A DNA stretch of 41,687 nt, taken from IMG/VR virus record IMGVR_UViG_2585427754_000009. One strand, given 5' to 3'. Each line of letters opens with the position of its first letter. The stretch's first letter is position 1. The translations under genes were made by a program, and so were the position numbers. Positions 1 to 40,895 of this stretch are shown here, piece by piece. This DNA is from a virus. Taxonomy: Duplodnaviria > Heunggongvirae > Uroviricota > Caudoviricetes. The notes below the pieces were generated by a model. It saw nothing but the letters and a program-made list of their open reading frames with translations. It was not told the DNA's origin and ran no database searches.

Positions 1-1164
1 TTACACATCATTAGTACCTTCCTTATTTTTTGACTGGGACAAATTTGGGACCGATGGGTTCAGGATCGAGTCTATTTGCCGTGCGTGTTCGGTAAGGTGA
101 TTAGGTGCAAGGTGAGCATATCGACGAACCATTTCGATAGACTCCCAGCCTCCCATTTCCTGTAACACTGACAACGGGACTCCGGCTTGAACCAGCCAAC
201 TTGCCCAGGTGTGTCTCAAGTCGTGAAATCTGAAATCATCAATACCAGCCCGTCTCAGCGCCGCTTTCCAGGCTGTGTTTGCGTCATACCGCATCTTCCT
301 TACTGTTGGCGCTTTCGTTCCGTCTGGTTTGGTACAGCTTTCCTTGTACACAAATACCCAACGGTGATGATTCCCGATTTGTTTTTTCAATACGCGACAT
401 GCAGTATCATTCAGCGCAACGCCAATTGCGCGGTTTGATTTACTCTCTTCCGGGTTTATCCATGCCACCCGGCGCTGCATATCTATTTGTTGCCATTCAA
501 GGTTGATGATGTTCGAGCGTCTTAAGCCTGTTGCCAGTGCAAATTCAACAACAGACTTTAATGGCTCCGGACATTCATCAATCAGCCTTTGTGCTTCATG
601 GGGCTCCAGCCAGCGGATCCGTTTATTCTTTGGTTGAGGCACTTTAATAATTGGTGCCTTATCCAGCATTTTCCATTCACGCTCTGCGGCTCTTAGTAGG
701 GCCTTTATAAATGAAAGATGCGTAGCCTTCGTTGCAACGGACGCTGGTTTTGGCGTGTATTCTGGAACAGGTTTCCCTTTTTTTCTGCATGCTTCTGCCC
801 TGAGTTTCCAGTTTTCCTCATGACGCCGGTTCGTCATTTTCTGCATTGCTGAATAAATTTTTGATTCAGTAATGTCTCTTAGTTGCATTCCTGCGAAATG
901 TTGAAGCCAGAATCCGATCCGGCTTTTGTCATCGTCCAGTGATTTTTTATGTGCTTTCTCTTCAAGCCACCTGACACACGCTTCCTCGAACGTTATATCA
1001 GGTATTTCACCAAGTTTGCTGACCCGCCATGCTTCAGCCTTTAGCTTGTCATGGAGTTCTGTCGCCTGCCTTTTGTCCTTTGTTCCAAGAGACTGTTTAA
1101 ATCTTTTACCGTTCGGCAATGTGAAACTGGCGTACCATATTTCACCTCTGCGGAAGAGTGACAT
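1..1164 (-). CDS. int: Tyrosine integrase, P22/SfV-type
   Basis: 387-aa ORF with stop at 1-3. N-terminus [14 protein letters not shown] and C-terminal HDLRHTWAS...MVRRYAHL (R-H-R-Y recombinase signature). Recognised from memory as P22-type Int. Last gene of the leftward operon; 5' end overlaps xis. Confidence 0.95.
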
Positions 1165-1391
1165 TTTCTTTCCTCTGTTATGCCATCACCCGCGCTCACC
1201 TGGACAGTATGCAGCGGAGACTGAAGAGCCGCAATGCAGGCTTGTCGTGTTGTGAGGTAAGGAGATTTATTCTTAGTGGGATCTTTGCGTGTTGCCTGAA
1301 GACGCCCTGTGCGTATCCAGTTAATGGCAGTCGGTCTGGATATCTTGAGAAAATGACAGGCCTCATCGAGTGTGAGGCTGTATGGCTCCAT
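1041..1391 (-). CDS. xis: Excisionase, P22 Xis-like (116 aa)
   Basis: Internal Met of ORF 1041..1475 gives [31 protein letters not shown] (HTH), matching P22 Xis from memory. ATG at 1389-1391 overlaps the stop of the upstream ORF (TAATG on coding strand). 124-bp out-of-frame overlap with int. Confidence 0.85.
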
Positions 1392-1696
1392 TATTTCACC
1401 TCTTGCTGTGACATTGTTGAAAAATGGATACCAGCTCGTTGCTGCCAGACGATCCAACCGAGAGTCATATCCCATGCCATGTATTCGTTATCGCCGTTTT
1501 TTGCTCTCCGACGATCTACTAAGTCACCGAAACGCTTTTCCATGAATAATTCATAAGCTTCGCGTTCATCTGGTTCTACTTCCAGAGATAGGAGTGCGAT
1601 TTCATAAGCACGGCGCTCAATATCGTCTCGCACGTCAAGGCTGCTGATACGCTCTTTAATTTCTTTAATCAGTTCTTTGTCGGTAAAAGTGGTCAT
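1391..1696 (-). CDS. Hypothetical early protein (YfdT-like, 101 aa)
   Basis: ORF translationally coupled to xis (TAATG) and to the upstream ORF (start at 1696 where that ORF ends). Size and position match the CPS-53 yfdT slot from memory. Confidence 0.7.
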   Translation of the reverse strand: MTTFTDKELIKEIKERISSLDVRDDIERRAYEIALLSLEVEPDEREAYELFMEKRFGDLVDRRRAKNGDNEYMAWDMTLGWIVWQQRAGIHFSTMSQQEVK

Positions 1697-2058
1697 TATG
1701 CTCCAGCCTCCGGTGCTTTTGGCATTACTGCCCAGTGAGTGATATTGACGTTTTCAAGGTCCCCGACCTGAAATGTCCACTGCCATTCTCCGGTTTCTTT
1801 TTGTCCCCAGGTGTACCAGAGAGAACGCCAGCCAATTAGCCAGCCTTCTCCGTTAGCATCGAATAACAAAACACTTTCATTTGCTGGTGGCAGTTCAGTT
1901 GACACTGGTATTACTTTGTTTTCCTGTGCTGCACATTTAGCTTCAAGCGCATCGAATTTACGCACCAGGTATTCAGCATCTGTTTCATTTACTTTCAGAT
2001 CTCGCGGTACACATCTCCCACGAAGAAACCCTTCCATTTCGAAAACATTCATGCGCAT
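1696..2058 (-). CDS. Hypothetical early protein (YfdS-like, 120 aa)
   Basis: ORF in the same leftward operon; overlaps the upstream HD-domain gene by 10 bp. Confidence 0.7.
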   Translation of the reverse strand: MRMNVFEMEGFLRGRCVPRDLKVNETDAEYLVRKFDALEAKCAAQENKVIPVSTELPPANESVLLFDANGEGWLIGWRSLWYTWGQKETGEWQWTFQVGDLENVNITHWAVMPKAPEAGA

Positions 2059-2585
2059 TTGCGTAACTCCGATAACTCGTTAAAGCGTTCCATAAACATC
2101 CCGTAGGCATGGCCCGGTGCCAGTGGAATCACGTTGAACATCTCTGTTGCCGGGATACCTTCCAGTACAGGCCAGAAAGAGCCATCATCAAGCCCGAGAT
2201 CGCGGCGTTCGGTTGCCAGCATGATGAGATCGGCATATTTCACGGGCGTACTCATAACTGGGGGTAACCCGTATTTCTCACGGATTACGGCGTCTATTTT
2301 TTCTTCCATTTGTTTATAGTCAGGAAGAAGGCGTTTCAGTGGTGCGGGAATGTCCTGGCAATACGCTTCTGTTGCATCATGCATTAACGCTTCAAAAGCA
2401 AATTCCTGCGGCACCAGCTGGCTGCAAAGAACCGCATGTTGGGCGACGCTGTAGAAGTGCGAAAGATGACCGGCAAAGCGACAGATATTTGAAAGGGAAA
2501 CCGCGATATCGTTAATATCGATGTCGTCTTTATTTATCCTGTCATAATAAAAATGCTTCCCGGAAAAAGTTTTAATAAATGACAT
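2049..2585 (-). CDS. HD-domain phosphohydrolase (YfdR-like 5'-deoxynucleotidase, 178 aa)
   Basis: Internal start MSFIKTFSG with GGAG 7 nt upstream (longer ORF reaches 2612). H..HD metal-binding motif (LMHDATEAY) and further His/Asp residues typical of the HD superfamily. Confidence 0.8.
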   Translation of the reverse strand: MSFIKTFSGKHFYYDRINKDDIDINDIAVSLSNICRFAGHLSHFYSVAQHAVLCSQLVPQEFAFEALMHDATEAYCQDIPAPLKRLLPDYKQMEEKIDAVIREKYGLPPVMSTPVKYADLIMLATERRDLGLDDGSFWPVLEGIPATEMFNVIPLAPGHAYGMFMERFNELSELRKCA

Positions 2586-2712
2586 TTTGTTCTCCACGTA
2601 TATGCGCTGCACCGCGCTGAATTCTGGTAAAAAGAATCCCTCACCATCCGGCGATTATTGAGTAAATTACGTTTCCATAAATGCCCCCGCAGGGGCATTT
2701 GCAGTAATGAAA

Positions 2713-3537
2713 TCAGGCGGTGAAAGTACCAATAAAGGTTTCTACTTTGCTGTCCTTGAATTTCTCAACAAGCAGATCACGAAATTCGTTAGCCATTTCT
2801 TCCTGCACCGCCTCCAGCTGAATAATGCGCAGAACCAGTACAGGACGATCGCCAGTGATAATACTGAGGCGTAATTTAAACGGACGTTCTTTCAGACCTT
2901 CAAACGGAACGCATTTAAATTCAAATGCCACTGGCATAATGTCTTTGGTCTTCGCTTCGACAGACTCCATCAGGGAGCGTTTGCCGCTGAAGTCATTATC
3001 TTCAAAATCAGCGGTCTGGTTTGCTTCAATCGTGATTTTACGGACAGCCGCAGCCGCTTTTGTTGCCTGAATAGCGTCACCATTAGCATCAAAGCCCACA
3101 AGATAGTCGGCCCAGTCTTCAATCCATTCTGCCAGTGACTTCTGGGAGTTACGCTCGCCGTTAACAGACAACAGAGCAGAGAACGGTGCTGTCTTTTTCA
3201 GTTTGAGTGTGGCGGTGTTATCTGCGTGACCTGGTTCATCAATAGTACCCAGGTTAAGCACACTGACGGCACGCATATTATCAGCATCGATAAAGCAGCG
3301 GGTGCCTTCATCTGCAAGATCTTTAGAATAACGGGTAAAGTCATCGATGCTGGCAGTGGAAAGCGCACCACGGAAACGGAAGCGATTTAAATTAAATTTT
3401 TCCAGATCATGAATGCGGAAATTCTCAGGCAATGCCACAGCATCGGCACCAATCTTACTGATAATTTCATTAACACCCTGAGCAGAAATAAGGGCATGGA
3501 TTTGATTAATTGCGGTTGCGTCTAAGTTCTGAGACAT
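2713..3537 (-). CDS. DUF2303 / YfdQ-like protein (274 aa)
   Basis: 274-aa ORF beginning [14 protein letters not shown]; recognised from memory as the YfdQ family of CPS-53-like prophages. Same leftward operon. Confidence 0.75.
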
Positions 3538-3602
3538 AATAAGTCCTCACTATATAAAGATATTCAGTGATGAGATAAATAATCAGTTAATTAAAAACGA
3601 TA

Positions 3603-3965
3603 TTAACGACCTGCTGCGCGGAGTTTTCCGTCAGGTTCACCGGCAAGAGTCAGTAACTGTCCCTGGTCTTCCTGCAGAATAGTCAGGCGACCACCGCGAT
3701 TGACATACATCGGCGTTTCGGTGGTGTCTTCTTCGGAAATTTTCCCGCGGTTAGTCGGGCGAACATATGAGAGTTTGTGTTTGATTTTCACACGGTTCTC
3801 ATCAAATGGTTCGATTTCCAGGTTGAGTGAGACCTTACCTTTGGTTTTCGTGTTCATCACACCGGAAGCGACTTCACTGAGAACTGCGCCGATTTTGGTT
3901 TCAAATACGCCGCCGTCCAGCTCCCCGATAAATGCCTGCACATCAGTACTGCGTTCGCTAGCCAT
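3603..3965 (-). CDS. Hypothetical early protein (YfdP-like, 120 aa)
   Basis: Start chosen at MASERSTDVQ (ATG at 3963-3965) because AGGAG lies 9 nt upstream; the ORF-track start at 4214 lacks an RBS and runs into structured non-coding DNA. Confidence 0.7.
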   Translation of the reverse strand: MASERSTDVQAFIGELDGGVFETKIGAVLSEVASGVMNTKTKGKVSLNLEIEPFDENRVKIKHKLSYVRPTNRGKISEEDTTETPMYVNRGGRLTILQEDQGQLLTLAGEPDGKLRAAGR

Positions 3966-4433
3966 TTTGCTGCTCCTCATCATATCGACCCTGCAAGGCC
4001 GATTAGTTTCTCCACAAAACAGAGAAGAACACCTGCGGTGGCAGCCGCCCGGATGGATTGGGTTATGAGCCCGTCGTCCGGTGATGCTCTTCTCTGTTTT
4101 GTAAAAAGGACGGTACCAGCCGGAAGCAAGAGTACAAGCTGGTACCGCCAGGACTACACACAGCATAAAGTTGTGGTGCCGGGTGCCTCCCGGTGCCTGG
4201 CGAAGGTTGCACACCAGGCGGGTGGGTATCTACAGAAGGTCGACTGTCAGCCTCAACCTTAACCCGCGTGCGCTGAGCCGCATTCACCACAACGCTAAGA
4301 ATTCTCTCTGGTTGAAAATACTTAGCTGTTATGTGCCTGCTTTTAGCCACATCAGGCGAGGTGGACCTGGTTATTCCCCAACAACAAGGATTCGGTTAAT
4401 CTGGTTATCCCCAACAACGCAAAAGGAAAAGAA

Positions 4434-4868
4434 ATGTCCGGTAATATCTACACGCTGTACAAATCCCACTGTGAAAATGTTGGAAAGTATCGGGGCATTG
4501 AAATCAGTGGGGTAGTGTCATCAGTCGAAATAAGCAAAGTCGAATCAAGGGCAACATTACTTACTCTTCTGGACCTTGTCTTACATGAGCACCGGAAGAA
4601 ATTCGGCACTCCCTATAATCAGTTGAATGGGAAAAAGGCTCTGGTTCACCTTATTCTGATGAAGCATCACTGGATGCCAAAACAGATTAATGAGATGAAA
4701 TTTGATGAACTTCTTCTTTCAATTCAGGATGAACTCACACTTGATAAAATAAGCGTAACCGCCCAGAAATTTTTAGATTATCGAGACTGGAGATCACAAA
4801 TTCATCACTTTGATGATTTTGACGAAAATGAATGGGATCCTAATTTGTCTGCACAATATCTAAAGTAA
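4434..4868 (+). CDS. Hypothetical protein, 144 aa, no family recognised
   Basis: ORF with AAGGAAAAG Shine-Dalgarno-like sequence 5-13 nt upstream of the ATG. Opposite orientation to the surrounding leftward operon. Preceded by two 18-19-bp direct repeats. Confidence 0.5.
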   Translation: MSGNIYTLYKSHCENVGKYRGIEISGVVSSVEISKVESRATLLTLLDLVLHEHRKKFGTPYNQLNGKKALVHLILMKHHWMPKQINEMKFDELLLSIQDELTLDKISVTAQKFLDYRDWRSQIHHFDDFDENEWDPNLSAQYLK

Positions 4869-4983
4869 CATCCTGTGATAAAACCGTGATTTCCTGATCC
4901 AGTTTTTTTAAGGAGTCTATTATTTCCTGTCGATAAGACAGCACTTCACGAAGCTGGTTTATAGCTGCCAGCTTCTTTGCCAT
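4840..4983 (-). CDS. Small ORF (47 aa), possible remnant of a leftward-operon gene
   Basis: In the pre-insertion reading frame a stop lies 2 codons upstream of the IS target site, so only a 47-aa ATG-initiated ORF (MAKKLAAINQLREV...) is possible. Weak RBS. Confidence 0.25.
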   Translation of the reverse strand: MAKKLAAINQLREVLSYRQEIIDSLKKLDQEITVLSQDVTLDIVQTN

Positions 4984-5031
4984 CCACTCGTAAATTTCCT
5001 CATTTGTGTATCCGGGCGCGACGATTTTGGG

Positions 5032-5040
5032 TTCTGTTTT
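5032..5040. repeat. Target-site duplication (TTCTGTTTT), left copy
   Basis: Identical 9-mer at 6097-6105 directly flanks the other IS end. Confidence 0.9.
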
Positions 5041-6096
5041 GGCTTTGTTGAATAAATAAGATTTCGTGCGAACGACCCTGTAGCTGGCTGGATTTTCAGG
5101 CAATACGCACGCTTTCTGGCATCCCAGCCTTTGTCATCCTGTTCAACGCACGCACCATGGCCATAGCTTCCGCTACCTGACCATCGTAGTCACGCAGCGT
5201 CAGTGAATCTCCCAACAACTGCTTCATTCTGTACATTGCCGTTTCCGCTATCGAGCGACGGTTATATTCCGTTGTCCATTTCCACCGTGCATTGCTTCCG
5301 CTCAGCCGCTGATTAGCAACGGCACGGTTGCGGTCTGCGTACTCACCGGGCCAGTAACCTGCTCCTTTTCGGGGAGGAATAAGCGCGCTGATTTTTTTGC
5401 GGCGCAGTTCATCGTGACAGAGCCGGGTATCGTAAGCCCCGTCTGCCGCGGCTGCCCTGATTTTTCTGTGAGTCTGCCGGATAAGGCCCGGGAAGGCTTC
5501 TGAGTCCGTGACGTTATTCAGCGACAGGTCTGCACAGACAACTTCATGTGTGTTGCTGTCAACAGCAAGATGCAACTTTCGCCAGATACGACGGCGCTCT
5601 TTGCCGTGCTTTCTGACTTTCCATTCGCCTTCACCAAAGACCTTCAGCCCGGTGGAATCAATCACCAGGTGTGCGATTTCACCCCGGGTGGACGTTTTGA
5701 AACTGACATTAACCGACTTTGCCCGCTTACTGACACTGGTGTAATCCGGGCAGCGCAACGGAACGTTCATCAGGGCAAAAATGGAATCAATAAAACCCTG
5801 CGCAGCCCGCAGGGTCAGCCGGAATACGCGTTTAATCACCAGAACGGTGGTGATGGCGAGATCAGAATAGCGCTGGGGCCTTCCTCGTGATGAAGGCGTT
5901 GCCGACTCATACCAGGCCTGAATCGCTTCATCATCCAGCCAGAAAGTGAGGGAGCCACGGTTGATGAGAGCTTTGTTGTAGGTGGACCAGTTGGTGATTC
6001 TGAACTTTTGCTTTGCCACGGAATGGTCTGTGTTGTCGGGAGGATGCGTGATCTGATCCTTCAACTCAGCAAAAGTTCGATTTATTCAACAAAGCC
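5041..6096 (-). mobile_element. IS903-like insertion sequence (IS5 family), 1056 bp
   Basis: Terminal inverted repeats GGCTTTGTTGAATAAAT(A/C) at 5041-5058 and 6079-6096 (17 of 18 identical). Single transposase ORF. Flanked by a perfect 9-bp direct repeat. Confidence 0.92.
5096..6064 (-). CDS. IS903-family transposase
   Basis: 322-aa ORF ...QKFRITNWSTYNKALINRGSLTFWLDDEAIQAWY... recognised from memory as IS903/IS102 transposase (DDE). True start may be a few codons inside the ORF. Confidence 0.92.
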   Translation of the reverse strand: MKDQITHPPDNTDHSVAKQKFRITNWSTYNKALINRGSLTFWLDDEAIQAWYESATPSSRGRPQRYSDLAITTVLVIKRVFRLTLRAAQGFIDSIFALMNVPLRCPDYTSVSKRAKSVNVSFKTSTRGEIAHLVIDSTGLKVFGEGEWKVRKHGKERRRIWRKLHLAVDSNTHEVVCADLSLNNVTDSEAFPGLIRQTHRKIRAAAADGAYDTRLCHDELRRKKISALIPPRKGAGYWPGEYADRNRAVANQRLSGSNARWKWTTEYNRRSIAETAMYRMKQLLGDSLTLRDYDGQVAEAMAMVRALNRMTKAGMPESVRIA

Positions 6097-6105
6097 TTCT
6101 GTTTT
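6097..6105. repeat. Target-site duplication (TTCTGTTTT), right copy
   Basis: Identical to 5032-5040. Confidence 0.9.
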
Positions 6106-6359
6106 GTGCATTTCACACCTCCTCAAGTTATCAGTTACTTGTTGATGGGGACCAGATTGTTAAAGAGCTAAGCGTCCTGTAGGGCGCTTTTTTGTTGCTA
6201 ACGAATCATCCTGGACTTCATATGCCCCAGGCGGCTACTTCGTGGGCGTCCTGCCTGTTCGTTTTTGACATTTACTGACTGCTTACGACACATGCACCGT
6301 GTTGCAACCAGATTTTGTTGTAATCCTGTAGTTGGTCTGGAACAAAAGATAAAATTAAA

Positions 6360-6396
6360 TTGCTAGATATGCAAGTGATATTTGCGGGATATGCAA
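6360..6396. promoter_or_regulatory. Putative OL operators (two 15-bp sites)
   Basis: TTGCTAGATATGCAA (6360-6374) and TTGCGGGATATGCAA (6382-6396) match TTGCGTGATAAGCAA in the cI-cro intergenic region at 13 of 15 positions; TTGC...GCAA dyad. Confidence 0.5.
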
Positions 6397-6409
6397 ATTG
6401 ATAGGTAAT

Positions 6410-6430
6410 AAAAAGCCACCTTTCGGTGGC
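6410..6430 (-). terminator. Intrinsic terminator downstream of cI
   Basis: GCCACC-TTTC-GGTGGC hairpin (6415-6430); on the minus strand it is followed by a U5 run (A-run 6410-6414 on plus). Lies 20 bp after the cI stop. Confidence 0.6.
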
Positions 6431-6449
6431 CGATGGAAGGATATTGAGG

Positions 6450-7142
6450 TTAATTATGTCTCTTAAGGGTTTGCGACTGACTGATTAAGACCTTTCCAAA
6501 GACCATGAATCGGTGTTCGTTTTCGCTAGTAATTCCCCATTCACGGTAAATCTGGTTATCAGAAATCACCAGCAGTTTGTCAGGAATCATTTGAAGTCTT
6601 TTAACGTATATTTTGTCATCAAAACCAAAGACATATATACCATCACCATCAAACTGATTGATGCTGACATCAACGAAGATGAGATCTCCTGGCTCAATGG
6701 TTGGACACATACTGTCCCCACGAACGTTGATAACTTTGATGTGATTGGCTGGTCGTCCGCCGAACATTGATACAGCATTATCAGTTCTGTATTCGATGGC
6801 ATGAATCACATCAATGACATCACCGCCCTGGATAAGGCCATTTCCCGCACTGGCACTGATATCCAGCATTTCAATACGGAACACATCCTTCACCTGCGCA
6901 ACATCCTCATCATTACTGTTTTTATATACAGTATTACTTTTGTGGGCAGAGGTAAAGAGATCAGCAATATCAACACCTAAGCTCTTGGCAATATTACTCA
7001 GTGTTTGTTCGGTAAATTGTTTTTGCTTACCCGTTTCTAAGCGCGAGATGTTCGCCGCATCTACTCCTATTGCTTCAGCGAGATCGGCGATTTTCATGTT
7101 CTTCGCTTGGCGAAGTTGTCTGACTCGGTTTCCTATGTTCAT
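6450..7142 (-). CDS. cI: CI-type repressor (HTH_XRE + S24 LexA-like peptidase)
   Basis: N-terminal HTH (KIADLAEAIGVDAANISRLETGK), Ala-Gly cleavage site (SASAGNG), catalytic Ser (VRGDSMCPT) and Lys (VKRL). Divergent from cro. Confidence 0.9.
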   Translation of the reverse strand: MNIGNRVRQLRQAKNMKIADLAEAIGVDAANISRLETGKQKQFTEQTLSNIAKSLGVDIADLFTSAHKSNTVYKNSNDEDVAQVKDVFRIEMLDISASAGNGLIQGGDVIDVIHAIEYRTDNAVSMFGGRPANHIKVINVRGDSMCPTIEPGDLIFVDVSINQFDGDGIYVFGFDDKIYVKRLQMIPDKLLVISDNQIYREWGITSENEHRFMVFGKVLISQSQTLKRHN

Positions 7143-7162
7143 GCGTTTATTACATTTCTTTA

Positions 7163-7225
7163 TTGCGTGATAAGCAAATCAACTTGCGCAAAATAATTGC
7201 GTGAAATAACATGCATAACGCGCAA
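7163..7225. promoter_or_regulatory. OR operator region between cI and cro
   Basis: TTGCGTGATAAGCAA (7163-7177), palindrome TTGCGCAA (7184-7191), TTGCGTGA repeat (7197-7204), and a reverse-strand match TTGCGCGTTATGCAT (7211-7225). Sits between divergent cI and cro starts. Confidence 0.55.
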
Positions 7226-7239
7226 TATTTGGAGGGCGT

Positions 7240-7500
7240 ATGCAATCACCATTACGAAATGTGCGTAAGGCGCATGGTTTCACTTTGCAGCATGTTGCTG
7301 CGGGTGTTCAAGTCAATCCAGCGACGTTGAGTCGTATTGAGAGGCTGGAGCAGATTCCATCTATCGAGCTTGCAGAACGTTTAGCCAATTTTTTTAAGGG
7401 TGAAGTCAGCGAAATGCAGATTCTTTATCCGGCACGTTTTCAATCTAGCCAAAACCAGAATGGGTTTAAACCACAGGAACAGGAGGTGAACCGTGGGTAA
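7240..7500 (+). CDS. cro: Cro-like HTH_XRE regulator
   Basis: 86-aa ORF with HTH (FTLQHVAAGVQVNPATLSRIERLE); GGAGGG 4 nt upstream of the ATG; divergent from cI. Confidence 0.85.
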   Translation: MQSPLRNVRKAHGFTLQHVAAGVQVNPATLSRIERLEQIPSIELAERLANFFKGEVSEMQILYPARFQSSQNQNGFKPQEQEVNRG

Positions 7501-9332: not shown

Positions 9333-9821
9333 ATGAGTCTTTTGAATGAAGTTCAGAAATTCATTGAAGCCCATCCGGGATGTACTTCCGGAGACATTGC
9401 GGATGCTTTTGCAGGTTACTCACGGCAGCGCGTTCTGCAGTCAGCAAGCAAGTTACGTCAGAGTGGGCGTGTGGCTCACCGTTGTGAAGGAGATACACGC
9501 AGACATTTCCCGCGCCTGACTGAGAGAGCGCAGGAACCGGAACCACAACCAGTTCGAGAAACCAGACCTGTGCGCAATTTCTATGTCGGCACTAACGATC
9601 CCCAGGTGATTTTGTGCCTGACCCGCCAGGCTGAAGAACTGGAGTCCAGGGGCTTATACCGTCGTGCTGCAACCGTGTGGATGGCGGCATTCCGTGAAAG
9701 CCACTCCCAGCCAGAACGAAACAATTTTCTGGCGCGTCGTGAGCGGTGCTTACGGAAAAGCAGCAAGCGCGCTGCATCGGGTGAAGAGTGGTATCTCTCA
9801 GGGAATTACGTGGGGGCTTAA
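9333..9821 (+). CDS. PerC-like transcriptional activator family protein
   Basis: ATG at 9333 with GGGGGTGA RBS. Central LTRQAEELESRGLYRRAATVWMAAF recalled as PerC-family signature. Low certainty. Confidence 0.45.
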   Translation: MSLLNEVQKFIEAHPGCTSGDIADAFAGYSRQRVLQSASKLRQSGRVAHRCEGDTRRHFPRLTERAQEPEPQPVRETRPVRNFYVGTNDPQVILCLTRQAEELESRGLYRRAATVWMAAFRESHSQPERNNFLARRERCLRKSSKRAASGEEWYLSGNYVGA

Positions 9822-10474
9822 TGAGTAATAAATATTGCCAGGCGCTGGCGGAACTGCGGAACAAACCAGCCCATGAACTGAAGGAAGTGGGCGATCAGTG
9901 GCGCACGCCGGACAACATTTTCTGGGGAATTAACACCCTGTTTGGCCCGTTTGTTCTGGATCTGTTCACTGACGGTGATAACGCCAAATGTGCTGCGTAT
10001 TACACGGCGGAAGACAACGCGCTGGCGCATGACTGGTCAGAACGCCTTGCGGAGCTTAAAGGTGCTGCCTTTGGTAATCCCCCATACAGCCGCGCCAGTC
10101 AGCATGAGGGGCAATACATCACCGGCATGCGTTACATCATGAAGCATGCCAGTGCCATGCGTGATAAAGGCGGGCGCTATGTTTTCCTGATCAAAGCTGC
10201 CACCAGCGAAGTGTGGTGGCCGGAAGATGCAGATCATATTGCTTTTATTCGCGGGCGTATTGGTTTTGAACTGCCTGCCTGGTTTATCCCGAAGGATGAG
10301 AAGCAGGTGCCGACAGGCGCTTTCTTCGCTGGTGCTATTGCTGTTTTCGACAAGACCTGGAAGGGACCGGCAATCAGCTACATCGGGCGCGATGAACTTG
10401 AGGCATGTGGTGAGGCCTTTCTGGCGCAGGTTCGCCAGCAGGCAGAAAAACTGGTCAGGGAGATGGCGGCATGA
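9821..10474 (+). CDS. dam: Phage Dam-type N6-adenine DNA methyltransferase
   Basis: TAATG coupling to the upstream gene. NPPY catalytic motif (AAFGNPPYSR). 217 aa; typical phage orphan Dam family. Confidence 0.85.
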   Translation: MSNKYCQALAELRNKPAHELKEVGDQWRTPDNIFWGINTLFGPFVLDLFTDGDNAKCAAYYTAEDNALAHDWSERLAELKGAAFGNPPYSRASQHEGQYITGMRYIMKHASAMRDKGGRYVFLIKAATSEVWWPEDADHIAFIRGRIGFELPAWFIPKDEKQVPTGAFFAGAIAVFDKTWKGPAISYIGRDELEACGEAFLAQVRQQAEKLVREMAA

Positions 10475-10797
10475 CGACGTTAACTCAATGCCAGCAGCAG
10501 GTGCTGGATATGCTGATTTCTTATCAGAAAGAACGTGGCTTCCCGCCAACCAATCAGGAGGTGGCAACCATGCTGGGATACCGTTCAGTGAATGCAGCGG
10601 TGGAGCATCTTCGCGCACTGGAGAAAAAAGGCGTCATCACGATAAAGCGTGGCGTGGCCCGGGGCATCACGCTTCATATCGCGGTGAAGGACGACGACAG
10701 CGAGGCGGTCGGGATTATCCGCTCACTGCTTGCCGGTGAGGAAAACGCAAGGCTGCGTGCAACCCACTGGTTACATGAGAGGGGCCTGAAAGTATGA
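10471..10797 (+). CDS. LexA-N-terminal-like DNA-binding protein (108 aa)
   Basis: ATGA overlap with dam. QQQVLDMLISYQKERGFPPTNQEVATMLGYRSVNAAVEHLRALEKKGVI resembles the LexA DNA-binding domain; no peptidase domain. Confidence 0.6.
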   Translation: MTTLTQCQQQVLDMLISYQKERGFPPTNQEVATMLGYRSVNAAVEHLRALEKKGVITIKRGVARGITLHIAVKDDDSEAVGIIRSLLAGEENARLRATHWLHERGLKV

Positions 10798-11183
10798 AGC
10801 TGATCCTGCCTTTTCCACCCAGCGTGAACACGTACTGGCGACACCCCAACAAAGGGGCGTTTGCTGGTAAGAGCCTGATAAGCGCGGCGGGGCGAAAATT
10901 CCAGAGCTCGGCGTGCGCAGCAATAGTTGAGCAGTTACGTCGTCTGCCGAAACCAACGTCGGCACCTGCTTCTGTGGAGATCGTGTTGTTTCCTCCGGAT
11001 AACAGGATCCGCGATCTGGACAACTATAACAAGGCGCTGTTTGACGCCCTGACCCACGCGGGGGTGTGGGAAGACGACAGTCAGGTGAAAAGAATGCTGG
11101 TGGAGTGGGGATCGGTTATCCCGGAAGGGAAGGTCGAGATCACTATCAGTAAGTACGAGAAAACGGCGGGTGCAGCCGCCTGA
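10794..11183 (+). CDS. rusA: RusA Holliday-junction resolvase
   Basis: 129-aa ORF with LPFPPSVNTYWRH...DLDNYNKALFDALTHAGVWEDDSQV, the conserved RusA acidic catalytic motif. Confidence 0.85.
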   Translation: MKLILPFPPSVNTYWRHPNKGAFAGKSLISAAGRKFQSSACAAIVEQLRRLPKPTSAPASVEIVLFPPDNRIRDLDNYNKALFDALTHAGVWEDDSQVKRMLVEWGSVIPEGKVEITISKYEKTAGAAA

Positions 11184-14369: not shown

Positions 14370-15422
14370 ATGAAAAATACTGTAAAAATAAACAGTATTG
14401 ATTTAATCAACGCTGATTGCCTGCATTTTATTCAGTCCCTGCCTGATGATTCCATTGACCTGATAGTTACCGATCCGCCGTACTTCAAAGTGAAGCCCAA
14501 CGGTTGGGACAATCAGTGGAAAGGGGACGAAGATTACCTTAAGTGGCTGGACCACTGTCTGGCTCAGTTCTGGCGGGTGTTAAAACCTGCCGGAAGCCTT
14601 TACCTGTTCTGTGGACATCGCCTGGCATCTGATATCGAGATCATGATGCGTGAACGTTTCAACGTGCTTAACCATATCATCTGGGCGAAGCCGTCCGGAC
14701 GATGGAACGGGTGTAATAAAGAAAGCCTGCGGGCATATTTCCCCGCTACAGAGCGCGTTCTGTTTGCTGAACATTACCAGGGGCCATATCGCGGCAAAAG
14801 TGACGGCTATGCGGAAAAAGAAAGGGAACTCAAACAGCACATAATGGCACCGCTGATATCGTATTTCAGGGATGCACGTGCCGAACTGGGTATAACGGCA
14901 AAACAGATTGCCGAAGCCACTGGTAAGAAAAACATGGTTTCCCACTGGTTTGGTGCCAGTCAGTGGCAGTTGCCGAATGAGGCTGACTACCGGAAGTTGC
15001 AGGCACTGTTTTCCCGTATAGCGGCAGAGAAGTTTCAGGAACAACAACTGGAACAGACACACCACCAGCTGGTGGCATCTTATGATTCACTGAATCGCAA
15101 ATATTCTGAATTGCTGGATGAGTTTAAATCTCTCCGGCGCTATTTCTCCGTATCAGTCTCCGTGCCTTATACCGATGTCTGGACGCATAAACCCGTTCAG
15201 TTCTACCCGGGTAAACATCCGTGTGAGAAACCGGCGGATATGCTCCGGCAAATAATCAATGCCAGTAGTCGACCAGGTGATCTGGTTGCTGATTTTTTTA
15301 TGGGATCTGGTTCCACAATAAAAGCAGCAATGGAGCTGGGGCGTCGGGCGTTAGGTGTTGAGCTTGAGTCAGATCGGTTTAACCAGACAGTGAAAGAGGT
15401 AAGTGAACTGGTGGGGAAATAA
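14370..15422 (+). CDS. Orphan DNA methyltransferase (N6A/N4C type, beta-class motif order)
   Basis: DPPY catalytic motif near the N-terminus (DLIVTDPPYF) and AdoMet motif FxGSGST near the C-terminus (FFMGSGSTIKAAMELGR). No adjacent nuclease gene. Confidence 0.8.
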   Translation: MKNTVKINSIDLINADCLHFIQSLPDDSIDLIVTDPPYFKVKPNGWDNQWKGDEDYLKWLDHCLAQFWRVLKPAGSLYLFCGHRLASDIEIMMRERFNVLNHIIWAKPSGRWNGCNKESLRAYFPATERVLFAEHYQGPYRGKSDGYAEKERELKQHIMAPLISYFRDARAELGITAKQIAEATGKKNMVSHWFGASQWQLPNEADYRKLQALFSRIAAEKFQEQQLEQTHHQLVASYDSLNRKYSELLDEFKSLRRYFSVSVSVPYTDVWTHKPVQFYPGKHPCEKPADMLRQIINASSRPGDLVADFFMGSGSTIKAAMELGRRALGVELESDRFNQTVKEVSELVGK

Positions 15423-37817: not shown

Positions 37818-39707
37818 TTAATCGTGTTTTGGCCATACTTTCAATGCAATTTCCCCCAACTTTTTACCCCGCTCCAGGATTTCATCCTCATCCCATTTAT
37901 CCTTAACTATAAGTGGAATGTTCAGTCGTAGATTGGTGTGGACGATGAGAGCATCACGTTTTTTCAGAAATACAGCATTCTGAACAGAACGGTTTACGCT
38001 AAGGTTAAGCAAAGTTAGATTTCCCAACGTAGCTATCGCTTGTTGCCGTTTCCTTACCAGTAGCTGTTCAGGGGTAAGATCGGTTCCAGACAGAACAATT
38101 TGGTTCAATACCGTAGCATCTGAATTTGTCACCATATGACCATTTTCGAGAGGCCAACAGGAATACCAACTTTGAGGCATAAGATGATCGATATCGAGGT
38201 TAGAAAGATTTGGAACATCAGGCTTCTCTGTCTTCACTTGGCGACAAAGTTCTCTTTCAAGTTCCGTTAACATTGAGCGCATTTTCGGTGCGTCGAGCCT
38301 GCCAGGATAAAGTGGAGCATTGATGCAAGCGTTGAGAAATTCTGAGTCCCCAGGCCAACGTGAGGCTTCGCCATTTAAGCTATTGAGGATATTACGTAAC
38401 TCAACACTGGAAATTTCCGTTTTAGACAAGTGCCGCAATACATTCATAAATACATTGTTGTAATTCTTTGGCGTCAGGCCACATACGGCTCTTCGTACTA
38501 CGTAGGAGACAAGATCATTATACATGGCTGCTTTCTCATCATCGGCGATGTTAGCTATCGAAATGAACAAAGCAAGCGGATAAAGTGTCGTCACATCATA
38601 GGCTGCGATGCGATGTCCAAAGTGTGAGATGGGGGTTGTGCCAAAACCACCAACCAATTCTTTATATTGTGATGCATATTGTTTGAGGCGCTTTACTTGC
38701 AGATCTGCTCGTTGTGAAGGCAAGTCCTTACTTACATAATCACGATACTCATTGTAAAGACGAGACAGATCGATTTCACGTTGCCTTTCTGATTGCAATG
38801 TCGCATGCACTAGCCACTCCATGCGTGGTTTATTAATACGACCACGACGTTGTCTTTCTGACCAGTACGTATCTTCAAAGATCTTCCACTCATTCTCATA
38901 TAATTCAACAGCATTAATATTTTCATGTTCAGCGCACATAAAAATATAATTGCGAATAAGATCTGTGGCATGAAGTTCCGCACCTCTGCCATTTAATGTT
39001 TCAAAAATTATTTGAGCGTCATCTTCAGCCTCGAGAAATATGCTTACTAGTTTCAGATCCGTCAAGACAGCCTCAATTAATGCTACAGCATTTTCTCGTG
39101 GTGAGTGATTTTCTATTTTAATCCACTTTATAAAGGCTTCAGTAAAAAAACATAATGCTTCTAGTGATGGCGGGTGATTAAAATGCTTACGCAACGTACC
39201 ATGCTGCGTGAAACTATCAGAGAATACATTCCGGATATCGTCAATATTTTCAACATTAAAACTTTGAATAAAATGAGTTTGATCCCGAAAAGTTGGCCAC
39301 AGTTTGAAGCGCTCTACTTCTTTATTTCGCATTGTGTCTTCGTTTGAGTTTTTCAGGCAAGACGAAATGAGAGGCTCTAAGTTGGAAAGATCTGTCGCAC
39401 GTAATGCTAATCGGATGGATGCCAGAACATATTGAAGAGTGGTCAATCGTTGCTGACCATCAATAATATGTATGGAATCTACACCTAATAATCCTTTTTT
39501 TGGTTGAGGTTCCAGTACCACTGCACCAAGGAAATGGGGAGTTGGTTTTGTACCCGAGAGCCGGGATTGTGCTTTCTCTAGGATATCCTCCAGTAGAGCT
39601 GACCATTGGTTTCGCTGAGTCCATACATAGGCACGTTGATAGAATGGAACGCAGTATTGTCGGCGGTCTTGAAAAAGTTGTTGGACAGTTAGCGTCTCGG
39701 ATTTCAT
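37818..39707 (-). CDS. GmrSD-family type IV restriction endonuclease (DUF262 + DUF1524)
   Basis: N-terminal DUF262 motifs (VPFYQRAYVW and IIDGQQRLTTL). C-terminal DUF1524 His-Me finger region (DIDHLMPQSW...LGNLTLLNLSVNRSV). Start at MKSETLTVQQ (39705-39707) preferred over 39767. AT-rich island. Confidence 0.8.
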   Translation of the reverse strand: MKSETLTVQQLFQDRRQYCVPFYQRAYVWTQRNQWSALLEDILEKAQSRLSGTKPTPHFLGAVVLEPQPKKGLLGVDSIHIIDGQQRLTTLQYVLASIRLALRATDLSNLEPLISSCLKNSNEDTMRNKEVERFKLWPTFRDQTHFIQSFNVENIDDIRNVFSDSFTQHGTLRKHFNHPPSLEALCFFTEAFIKWIKIENHSPRENAVALIEAVLTDLKLVSIFLEAEDDAQIIFETLNGRGAELHATDLIRNYIFMCAEHENINAVELYENEWKIFEDTYWSERQRRGRINKPRMEWLVHATLQSERQREIDLSRLYNEYRDYVSKDLPSQRADLQVKRLKQYASQYKELVGGFGTTPISHFGHRIAAYDVTTLYPLALFISIANIADDEKAAMYNDLVSYVVRRAVCGLTPKNYNNVFMNVLRHLSKTEISSVELRNILNSLNGEASRWPGDSEFLNACINAPLYPGRLDAPKMRSMLTELERELCRQVKTEKPDVPNLSNLDIDHLMPQSWYSCWPLENGHMVTNSDATVLNQIVLSGTDLTPEQLLVRKRQQAIATLGNLTLLNLSVNRSVQNAVFLKKRDALIVHTNLRLNIPLIVKDKWDEDEILERGKKLGEIALKVWPKHD

Positions 39708-40512
39708 GGTATACCTGTAAGCGACATTGTACAAAAGTGAGGAGTTAATCTGATTTAGAACAATCATTTTATGTTGCTATGATACAACGTATTTGTTACC
39801 GGTTAAGTAAAAAACGCGTCTGAACGCTGACGTTTTAGGGCTTTACTAGTTATTCTTTCTTATCTCTTCATCATCCCATCGGCATCCTGTCGAGGTTGTT
39901 GACTTGTTGTTATTTATTTTGTTTAGGCGCTGTTTAATTATTATTGATGGGACTGGTGGTGAGAGGTGATTGAAACCGCAGACAGGTCGTATGCAAGACG
40001 TGCTGCGGTTGGCTGGTAAATGTTAGATAGTGCGAGTATTGAATGATTTCTAGCCGTTATTGATTTTACGTATTTTTGTATGAGAGGATTTGCATCTCCT
40101 GCCACCGACCCTCCATGACTTTACGCCACTGTCTCTAGGGCTGCTATGTGCCAGGAGCAGCCATTGCTAAGTCCATCCTGTATTGTGCAGGTCAGCTCGT
40201 TTTTAAAGAGTCCGGCCATCATCTTACTGGTACAGACACCATATACTTTGTGACGGTCAGGCTACATATGCACAACTCAACTTATTCATCTATTTTTTGC
40301 TTTAGCATGTCAGTGTTGCTTTCTCGTCGGCGGGTGAGCGGTGACCTGACCTGTCGATAAAGGAACGTAGCACGTTTTATGCAACACCCGCATGCGGCAG
40401 AAAATTATTGCCGAACGTTTACCCCTGTCAACAAGCTTTACTTTCTGAGGCGCGCCAGCCCGCGAGGAAAACAATCTGAACATCAAACAATTAATGACAC
40501 AAGAAATACGAT

Positions 40513-40562: not shown

Positions 40563-40895
40563 ATGTCTGTCACAATTCAGGGAAATACCTCAACCGTTAT
40601 TTCAAACAACTCCGCCCCGGAAGGAACATCAGAAATAGCCAAAATCACAAGACAAATTCAGGTGCTGACTGAAAAGCTTGGGAAAATCTCATCGGAAGAG
40701 GGGATGACGACACAGCAGAAAAAAGAAATGGCTGCATTGGTACAGAAGCAAATTGAAAGCCTCAGGGCTCAACTGGAGCAGTTGTTAAGGCAGCAGGCAG
40801 AGAAAAAGAATGAAGACGCGACAGTTCAGCCTGATAAAAAAGAAGAGAAAAAAGACGATACAAATACCGCTGGCACCATTGATATTTACGTCTAA
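40563..40895 (+). CDS. flxA: FlxA
   Basis: 110-aa product MSVTIQGNTSTVISNNSAPEGTSEIAKITRQIQVLTEKLGK... recognised from memory as E. coli FlxA; AAGGAGA RBS. Confidence 0.85.
   Translation: MSVTIQGNTSTVISNNSAPEGTSEIAKITRQIQVLTEKLGKISSEEGMTTQQKKEMAALVQKQIESLRAQLEQLLRQQAEKKNEDATVQPDKKEEKKDDTNTAGTIDIYV

Follow-up and report, generated by a model that had tools for sequence, protein, structure and literature searches.

The yfdP-yfdT block of an SfIV-like phage: a strict yfdP-yfdQ pair accompanied by a conserved HD-domain protein and a possible role against host replication

Gene content and layout of the block

The window studied here is a stretch of 41,687 nucleotides (nt) from a Caudoviricetes virus (IMG/VR record IMGVR_UViG_2585427754_000009). 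It can be described as a mosaic SfIV-like phage, most of its late genes being 90-98% identical to those of Shigella phage SfIV. This report concerns a block of five leftward genes, yfdP to yfdT, which is bounded upstream by a cI-like repressor gene and downstream by the xis and int genes of the same strand. The original prediction, made from the sequence alone, had placed five leftward genes at positions 1391-3965, and their number, coordinates and position are borne out by the open reading frame (ORF) list. The genes and features of this region are the following:

6450-7142, minus strand: cI-like repressor, which marks the immunity region
3603-3965, minus strand: yfdP, 120 amino acids (aa), from the ORF list; family PF27127
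2713-3537, minus strand: yfdQ, 274 aa; DUF2303
2679-2700, minus strand: 9-bp GC-rich hairpin, AAATGCCCC-TGCG-GGGGCATTT, directly 3' of the yfdQ stop, in the yfdQ-yfdR spacer
2049-2585, minus strand: yfdR, 178 aa; HD-domain phosphohydrolase, orthologue of the K-12 DnaA-binding protein
1696-2058, minus strand: yfdS, 120 aa; N-terminal module common to other phage proteins, followed by a C-terminal DUF551
1391-1696, minus strand: yfdT, 101 aa; without Pfam family, N-terminal ~50 residues common to several PHROGs
1041-1391, minus strand: excisionase xis; Pfam HTH_17 and phrog_2907 excisionase
1-1164, minus strand: tyrosine integrase int, at the end of the leftward gene string; Pfam Phage_integrase, E 3e-48

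The start of yfdR is placed at the ATG at 2585, a choice supported by a GGAG ribosome-binding site and by agreement with the K-12 protein; this ATG displaces the GTG at 2612 proposed by the mechanical ORF list. Residues 29-144 of the xis ORF align to profile positions 2-117 of the 117 positions of phrog_2907.

The five genes had been presented as translationally coupled. This description fits the distal part of the string, where yfdR and yfdS overlap by 10 nt and where the yfdS/yfdT and yfdT/xis overlaps amount to 1 nt each (TAATG). It has to be given up for yfdP/yfdQ and yfdQ/yfdR, which are separated by an AT-rich spacer of 65 nt and by a spacer of 127 nt, respectively. The hairpin located in the latter spacer has no U-tract. 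The predicted fold of this spacer has a z score of -2.5 and the hairpin is retained in the centroid structure; it could allow different levels of YfdP and YfdQ versus YfdR, YfdS and YfdT. All five proteins are acidic (pI 4.8-5.9), a property consistent with protein-protein rather than DNA binding.

Closest relatives of the block

Over its 2575 bases, the block shows 100% DNA identity with SfIV and 99.4% with SfV, its counterparts being gp30-gp34 in the former and orf28-orf32 in the latter. From int to position 5041 (positions 1-5041), the window and SfIV are 99.8% identical. The two phages differ in the immunity region of the window (6267-7464), in an insertion sequence (IS) element carried by the window and in the accessory genes located at the tail-fibre end. 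The DNA homology with SfIV ends at 6266 and restarts at 7465. The block itself was found in 70 phage records and in 3300 of 5426 complete E. coli genomes (~60%), and the RefSeq gene names at the E. coli matches are yfdP, yfdQ, yfdR and yfdT.

A further comparison is that with the CPS-53 (KpLE1) prophage of E. coli K-12 MG1655. By BLASTP, the window proteins are 98, 99, 98, 96 and 96% identical over their full length to K-12 YfdP, YfdQ, YfdR, YfdS and YfdT, and YfdR differs from its K-12 counterpart by four substitutions in 178 residues. The label "yfdP-yfdT-like" given in the original prediction was therefore well chosen. The K-12 genes (b2359-b2363) share with the window the gene order, the lengths of 120, 274, 178, 120 and 101 aa, the 65- and 127-nt spacers and the overlaps. 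The context is different: the K-12 cluster lies in a decayed prophage beside torI, with intS at the far end, whereas the block of the window is carried directly upstream of xis-int by an apparently complete SfIV-like phage and has an IS903-type insertion upstream. The block is thus the functional-phage version of the named CPS-53 genes, a real, ordinary and already described gene set.

A similar layout, with yfdP-yfdQ between cI and xis/int, is also seen in phages mEp460, Stx2a_WGPS2 and ST64B. In mEp460 and in the Stx2a- and Stx2c-converting phages, the order cI, yfdP-Q-R-S, variable genes, xis, int is the one seen in the window; mEp460 and Stx2a_WGPS2 differ from it in having Ea22-like or DUF551 genes where the window has yfdT.

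At the level of protein families, the assignment of YfdQ to DUF2303 (PF10065) had been made correctly from the sequence: the match reaches 309.7 bits (E 2e-92) for a gathering cut-off of 26.6 bits and covers profile positions 2-269 of 269. The match of YfdS to DUF551 is marginal (22.2 bits, gathering cut-off 22 bits) and aligns residues 50-117 with profile positions 3-68 of 68. In both YfdS and YfdT, the N- and C-terminal halves match different PHROGs; in YfdS, separate matches cover residues 1-50 and 47-117. All the PHROG families to which YfdP, YfdQ, YfdS and YfdT belong are families of unknown function.

Distribution and anatomy across genomes

The co-occurrence of the five genes was determined around 80 yfdQ loci, taking one genome per species and searching the ORFs with the five proteins of the window. 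This sample was used in place of a scan of viral contigs, whose 80 yfdQ loci were all 100% identical and therefore of no use for this purpose. YfdP was found directly upstream of YfdQ in all 79 evaluable loci, the 80th locus ending at a contig end. YfdR was encoded at most 2 kb downstream of YfdQ in 59 of the 80 loci, YfdS was present in six and YfdT in four. Beyond the Enterobacterales, in Marinobacter, Photobacterium, Hahella and Kistimonas, the pair formed by yfdP and yfdQ stands alone. In the same way, each of five distant phages encodes, directly upstream of YfdQ, a YfdP homologue (E 1e-17 to 1e-41), and two of these phages only, ST64B and Pseudomonas phage pAN, encode YfdR.

The neighborhood of the pair is that of a prophage early region. 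In many of the 80 sampled bacterial species, yfdQ is bordered by homologous integrase and repressor clusters; for the repressor cluster, this is the case in 57 of the 80 loci, at a distance of ~2 kb on the upstream side. The conserved neighbors on the early-left side are the repressor, xis/int, a DEDD exonuclease and small variable genes. The YfdQ family comprises 1781 clusters at 50% identity and extends over phages of Enterobacterales, Vibrio, Xanthomonas, Pseudomonas and Burkholderia, both temperate and apparently lytic. The best 150 of the family representatives are mostly 250-300 aa long, and no domain fusion of YfdQ was found among these 150.

What is new here is this hierarchy: yfdP and yfdQ form an obligate pair (79/79), yfdR is a frequent companion of it, and yfdS and yfdT are rare add-ons. 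The block is consequently a conserved yfdP-yfdQ pair to which yfdR and the variable yfdS and yfdT are joined, and not one coupled five-gene unit.

A possible block of host replication initiation

In K-12, yfdQRST supplied in multicopy was found to suppress hda-185, a mutant that over-initiates (Noguchi and Katayama, PMC4776307). The minimal set consists of yfdQ and yfdR together with one of yfdS and yfdT, yfdP being dispensable. In multicopy, this set inhibits initiation at oriC in several genetic backgrounds, and extracts are inhibitory in vitro as well (PMC4776307). YfdR is pulled down by domains I-II of DnaA in a manner that needs Phe46, and it competes moderately with DiaA and DnaB (PMC4776307). 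An ancestral role in an active phage was suggested by the same authors, who gave SfV orf29-31 as homologues. In lambda, the exo-xis region is reported to inhibit host DNA replication (Sergueev 2002, as cited in PMC3824215).

On the basis of the 96-99% identity to the tested K-12 proteins and of the positional parallel with lambda exo-xis, the best explanation for the block is that of an accessory host-takeover module, which would block host initiation via YfdR acting with YfdQ and YfdS or YfdT. This explanation is given roughly an even chance of being correct. The block would presumably be transcribed from the early leftward promoter and, early after induction or infection, would shut down replication initiation on the host chromosome. 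YfdR would bind domain I of DnaA at the Phe46 patch, which DnaA uses for DiaA and for the DnaB helicase. By extrapolation from the K-12 proteins, YfdQ and either YfdS or YfdT would be needed alongside YfdR in vivo. DnaB would possibly be left free for the O-like initiator of the phage itself, and the overall effect would parallel the host-replication block exerted by lambda exo-xis from the same map position. In this scheme yfdP-yfdQ would remain a separate, obligately paired unit. [quoted passage not shown]

The parallel with lambda exo-xis (orf60a, orf63, orf61, orf73, ea22, ea8.5) can be drawn in several respects. Both regions lie in the distal part of the pL operon, just before xis, and the lambda region is likewise composed of small non-essential genes, which, when expressed, inhibit DNA replication in the host and influence the cell cycle. 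Modules of the DUF551/Ea22 type are common to YfdS and to the genes replacing yfdT: DUF551 is also found in one Ea22 variant, and Ea22-like genes occupy the yfdT position in relatives. The lambda region differs in lying downstream of a full exo-bet-gam module. None of the Pfam or PHROG matches of the block proteins is named for a lambda exo-xis gene, and YfdP, YfdQ and YfdR showed no homology to the lambda ORFs, in a comparison made through these families and without direct alignment to the lambda proteins.

Other proteins acting on DnaA provide a second set of comparisons. DiaA of E. coli and SirA of B. subtilis target the Phe46 patch of DnaA domain I, as K-12 YfdR does. Lambda P, which serves the replication of its phage, is likewise an inhibitor of host initiation; it differs by its binding to DnaA domain III. 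None of the three is related to YfdR in sequence or fold, and YfdR is distinguished from all of them by its need for YfdQ and YfdS or YfdT in vivo.

Several observations weigh against a host-takeover module. The replication block has been seen with multicopy or overproduced genes only, deletion of yfdQRST in K-12 leaves initiation unaffected, and the authors conceded that the effect might be due to overexpression (PMC4776307). [quoted passage not shown] In addition, yfdP-yfdQ occurs without yfdR in 21 of the 80 loci as well as in elements of Vibrio, Xanthomonas and Marinobacter, so that assisting YfdR cannot be the primary job of the pair. The strict conservation of the HD residues of YfdR, described below, points to an enzymatic activity not required by the DnaA model. 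Finally, an IS insertion and a terminator-like hairpin located upstream of yfdP make the expression of the block uncertain in this particular copy.

YfdR and its HD active site

The original prediction had described one of the five proteins as an HD-domain hydrolase. This is correct, the H...HD...D metal-ligand motif being recognizable in YfdR. Far from lacking the metal-binding residues, YfdR aligns its H50, H69-D70 and D119 to the metal ligands of its closest solved relative, the uncharacterised protein Atu1052 (PDB 2GZ4, E 3e-14). The catalytic set comprises R36, an aromatic residue at position 37, H50, H69, D70, E73, D78 and D119. R36, H50, H69, D70, E73, D78 and D119, which include these ligands, are kept in 60-62 of 62 homologues with 29-98% identity. 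Such a strict conservation indicates selection on an enzymatic activity, and the completeness of the site makes YfdR very probably an active metal-dependent phosphohydrolase; its 5'-(deoxy)nucleotidase activity in vitro is weak.

These data have to be considered together with an enzymatic explanation of the whole block. According to this proposal, YfdR would hydrolyse deoxyribonucleoside 5' monophosphates (dNMPs) or another phosphorylated nucleotide early, altering nucleotide pools or destroying a signal, and the other genes would be passengers. It is consistent with the full YfbR-type set (Arg-aromatic, H, HD, E, D, D) persisting in homologues down to 29% identity, with the PHROG match of YfdR (phrog_318, dNMP phosphatase, E 1e-111) and with RefSeq, which names the family in the same way. 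K-12 YfdR also hydrolyses nucleotides in vitro, with an affinity much below that of YfbR, according to the work of Zimmerman (2008) as it is cited in PMC4776307.

The resemblance to YfbR is nevertheless very distant. H69, D70, E73 and D78 of YfdR match catalytic residues of E. coli YfbR (PDB 2PAQ) in an alignment limited to the HD...E...D segment (phmmer E 0.88). The match to the Pfam family YfbR-like (PF12917) covers profile positions 36-99 only and its 25.0 bits lie just under the 25.9 cut-off, while the NCBIfam YfbR equivalog NF003009 is clearly failed with 20.5 bits for a cut-off of 122. Conversely, DnaA binding is known for YfdR and not reported for YfbR. The idea that the phage enzyme could act on nucleotide pools, put forward in the original prediction, gains little from these scores and from the low nucleotide affinity quoted above. 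A deletion of yfdR left the yield of cytidine monophosphate (CMP) unchanged in an engineered K-12 strain (PMC10870394), in which the prophage gene may be silent. Moreover, the early-left string contains no other nucleotide-metabolism gene, and the need for yfdQ and yfdS or yfdT in the sole known phenotype is left unexplained. A purely enzymatic role of the block is therefore considered unlikely.

Structural leads on the YfdP-YfdQ pair

The model of YfdP combines a long helix at the N terminus with a three-stranded sheet and a conserved tail of low confidence. A clamp-binding motif was considered for this tail and rejected by eye, as the conserved QGQL(F/L)TLAG does not fit QL[SD]LF or QLxLxL. 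The fold model of YfdQ, an acidic protein of pI 5.0, has no match to a known fold. A lead comes from the PDB sequence file, in which entry 9O7M, entitled 'YfdQ Protein', comprises a 274-residue YfdQ homologue (E 1e-44) present as 36 chains. Being newer than the fold libraries of April 2026, the entry is missing from them; a literature search found no publication on it. The YfdQ of 9O7M originates from a CP2-like Xanthomonas phage and is 98.8% identical to that of MET23-P3. When the capsid, the portal and ORF36 of CP2 were searched against the PDB sequences, none matched 9O7M, which led to the rejection of a virion structure. No match to this entry was obtained either with YfdP, its profile and the YfdP homologue of CP2. 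The entry therefore looks like a YfdQ-only protein assembly. Its example chain is chain 'C', and chains A and B are possibly not proteins of at least 20 residues.

A second lead is provided by Burkholderia phage JC1, whose DUF2303 protein gp10 was detected with five unique peptides by mass spectrometry in virions purified on caesium chloride (PMC9144972). The presence in virions of the product of a replication/repair-module gene was unexpected, and the authors speculated about a DNA-end protector similar to gp2 of T4 (PMC9144972). Mere co-purification of a very large oligomer with the virions would also be conceivable. Taken together, 9O7M and JC1 keep open a DNA-associated or entry-stage role for YfdP-YfdQ.

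Along these lines, yfdP-yfdQ might constitute a new phage early protein machine acting on the genome or travelling with it, YfdR and the DnaA effect being a lineage-specific add-on. The YfdP-YfdQ assembly could then serve in DNA-end handling, host replisome capture or counter-defence. This broader proposal has a rather small chance of being right.

Counter-defence or host manipulation has also been considered for the block in its own right. The pair would act as an oligomeric decoy or sponge or as an inhibitor of an immune nuclease, and YfdR would degrade an immune signalling nucleotide. An early accessory position among small, fast-exchanged genes suits this proposal, and so do the acidic nature of the proteins, the large assembly seen in PDB 9O7M and the wide spread over temperate and apparently lytic phages from Enterobacterales to Burkholderia. 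The possible carriage of the DUF2303 protein in JC1 virions would likewise suit a protein needed at DNA entry. On the other hand, PADLOC, whose library models defence and not anti-defence proteins, returned no match for seven early-left proteins. No link to any defence system was found in the literature, and the phenotype known in K-12 concerns DnaA, not immunity. Such a function is judged improbable.

The recombination question

The original prediction held that the block replaces a recombination module and that none of its genes resembles a recombinase. The second statement stands: none of the five proteins matches a recombinase, a nuclease or a RecBCD inhibitor by sequence, and the fold models of YfdP and YfdQ agree with this result for the same three classes. 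More generally, no single-strand annealing protein (SSAP), exonuclease, Gam or Abc2 was matched in the early-left or early-right genes using Pfam and PHROGs. The phage has no recognizable protein of a lambdoid Rec module, be it Beta/RecT/Erf/Sak4, Exo/RecE/YqaJ, a single-stranded DNA-binding protein (SSB) or Gam/Abc2. The replication module consists of an O-like gene only, without helicase loader. Two features of the window bear on recombination:

10794-11183, plus strand: RusA-like Holliday-junction resolvase, the sole recombination-related gene found in the early regions
1883-1890, plus strand: Chi site GCTGGTGG, inside yfdS

Chi sites are abundant in this genome. The window contains 17 copies of GCTGGTGG where 1.76 are expected by chance, an approximately ten-fold excess, and these are distributed as 14 on the top strand and three on the bottom strand (e.g. 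1883, 7691, 11096 ... 26676). Nine of the 14 top-strand sites fall in the right-most quarter of a virion map based on SfIV. A recent survey (PMC12315714, Genome Research 2025) reported that 22% of lambdoid phages are without a Rec module, are rich in correctly oriented Chi sites and presumably exploit the host RecBCD. Class A of this survey is defined by the absence of Rec genes, at least eight active and at most six inactive Chi sites and a clustering toward the right end; the window phage belongs by its gene content and Chi sites to this "no Rec module, Chi-rich" class. With the prototype LLS and with ST64B and phiNP, it shares the lack of SSAP, exonuclease, SSB and anti-RecBCD genes, the presence of yfdR/yfdQ/yfdP in the early-left operon and the many Chi sites in active orientation clustered toward the right end; an O-like gene as only replication gene is also found in LLS. 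It differs from them in that the proteins of LLS and ST64B are ~57-59% identical to those of the window, and in that SfIV/SfV-type phages have Mu-like contractile tails. From these sequence features, the phage appears to depend on RecBCD of the host, working at its many Chi sites of correct orientation.

The first statement, replacement of a recombination module, is valid for the position and has to be abandoned for the function, since yfdP-yfdQ coexists with complete Rec modules. The pair immediately follows RecT and an exonuclease in ArgO145; it adjoins Erf, an exonuclease, an endonuclease and SSB in Xanthomonas phage CP2, and JC1 encodes RecT and YqaJ besides its DUF2303 gene. The survey mentioned above found the yfdR/yfdQ/yfdP cluster to be common in early-left operons and unlikely to encode hidden recombination proteins, no unknown gene being shared by all Rec-less phages in their early-left regions (PMC12315714). 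The yfdP-yfdT block is not a disguised recombination system.

A related proposal makes of yfdP-yfdQ an unrecognised DNA-transaction complex, annealing, end-protecting or RecBCD-modulating, through which the block would functionally stand in for the Rec module. The position of the block, the proximity of the pair to the recombination genes of ArgO145 and CP2 and to a DEDD exonuclease and SSB in VvAW1, the JC1 virion protein with its suggested T4 gp2-like role (PMC9144972) and the 36 homologue chains of a single PDB entry, annealing proteins being typically large oligomers, can all be cited for it. It is nonetheless quite improbable, as the presence of the pair beside complete Rec modules speaks against redundancy with them, hidden recombination proteins were judged unlikely in the survey, YfdP and YfdQ are both acidic, a Chi-rich oriented genome implies that RecBCD is used and not inhibited, and K-12 extracts with YfdQRST did not bind oriC DNA stably (PMC4776307).

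State of this copy and other features of the window

The region upstream of yfdP bears on the expression of the block in this particular phage. It contains the following features:

5042-6096: IS903-type (IS5 family) element, 1055 bp, terminal repeat GGCTTTGTTGAATAAAT; Pfam DDE_Tnp_1_5 and DDE_Tnp_1, and alignment with SfIV
4840-5041, minus strand: remnant of the 68-aa first early-left gene (phrog_1744), intact in SfIV; phrog_1744 aligns from residue 22 of the ORF
4103-4149, minus strand: strong terminator-like hairpin whose 13-bp stem precedes CUUUUU; it lies on the coding strand, ~135 nt upstream of where yfdP starts

The IS903-type element is bordered by a 9-bp target duplication, TTCTGTTTT, with junctions at 5033-5041 and 6097-6105. 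Its insertion removed the first 4-5 codons, the ribosome-binding site and the promoter side of the 68-aa gene. The element separates yfdP-T, xis and int from the immunity region, the presumed site of the early leftward promoter. With the operon thus severed from the immunity region, the early promoter may no longer drive it, and early-left expression as well as excision of the prophage may suffer. The junction was not found in any of the 5426 complete E. coli genomes. The hairpin at 4103-4149 has a predicted energy of -23 kcal/mol (z -4.6) and none of 200 shuffled sequences was as stable; it could be an early-left terminator needing antitermination. No N-like gene was recognised.

Between the immunity region and yfdP, a 144-aa ORF (4434-4868, plus strand) is opposed to the early-left genes. 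It corresponds to SfIV gp36 and to phrog_5286, of unknown function, and may be a moron with its own promoter. The immunity region itself (6267-7464, with the cI-like gene at 6450-7142 and a cro-like gene at 7240-7500) has no DNA similarity to SfIV, whereas its flanks are 97-99.8% identical. As judged from this alignment, the difference is a module swap, which would change the immunity specificity.

Further features lie outside the early-left region. Beyond the tail-fibre genes, at the place where SfIV has its gtr genes for O-antigen glucosylation, the window carries on the minus strand (37818-39767) a gene for a 649-aa GmrSD-type (DUF262/DUF1524) type IV restriction endonuclease, which is probably a defence gene carried by the prophage. 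A FlxA-like ORF (40563-40895, plus strand) is located close to the window's right end, in the 36.7-41.7 kb stretch that has no match in SfIV. An N6/N4 methylase-like gene (14370-15422, plus strand) is found between a Q-like antiterminator gene and the holin gene, in a stretch without SfIV alignment, and a methyltransferase/PAPS-reductase-like gene (9788-10474, plus strand) belongs to the nin-type region. A search of the whole window with Rfam at gathering thresholds detected no structured RNA, and there are no tRNAs.

Significance

The yfdP-yfdT block is a named and widespread prophage gene set, for which YfdR-DnaA binding and a block of initiation were published in 2016 and whose presence in Rec-less, Chi-rich lambdoid phages was already discussed in 2025. 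The interest that remains resides in the role of YfdP-YfdQ, strictly paired and very widespread. It resides as well in the puzzle of a protein that keeps a perfect HD site despite its DnaA-binding role, and in the question of a host-replication block during phage growth. Phages of the SfIV/SfV type, which are inducible, genetically tractable and convert Shigella serotypes, would be a reasonable system in which to address such questions.

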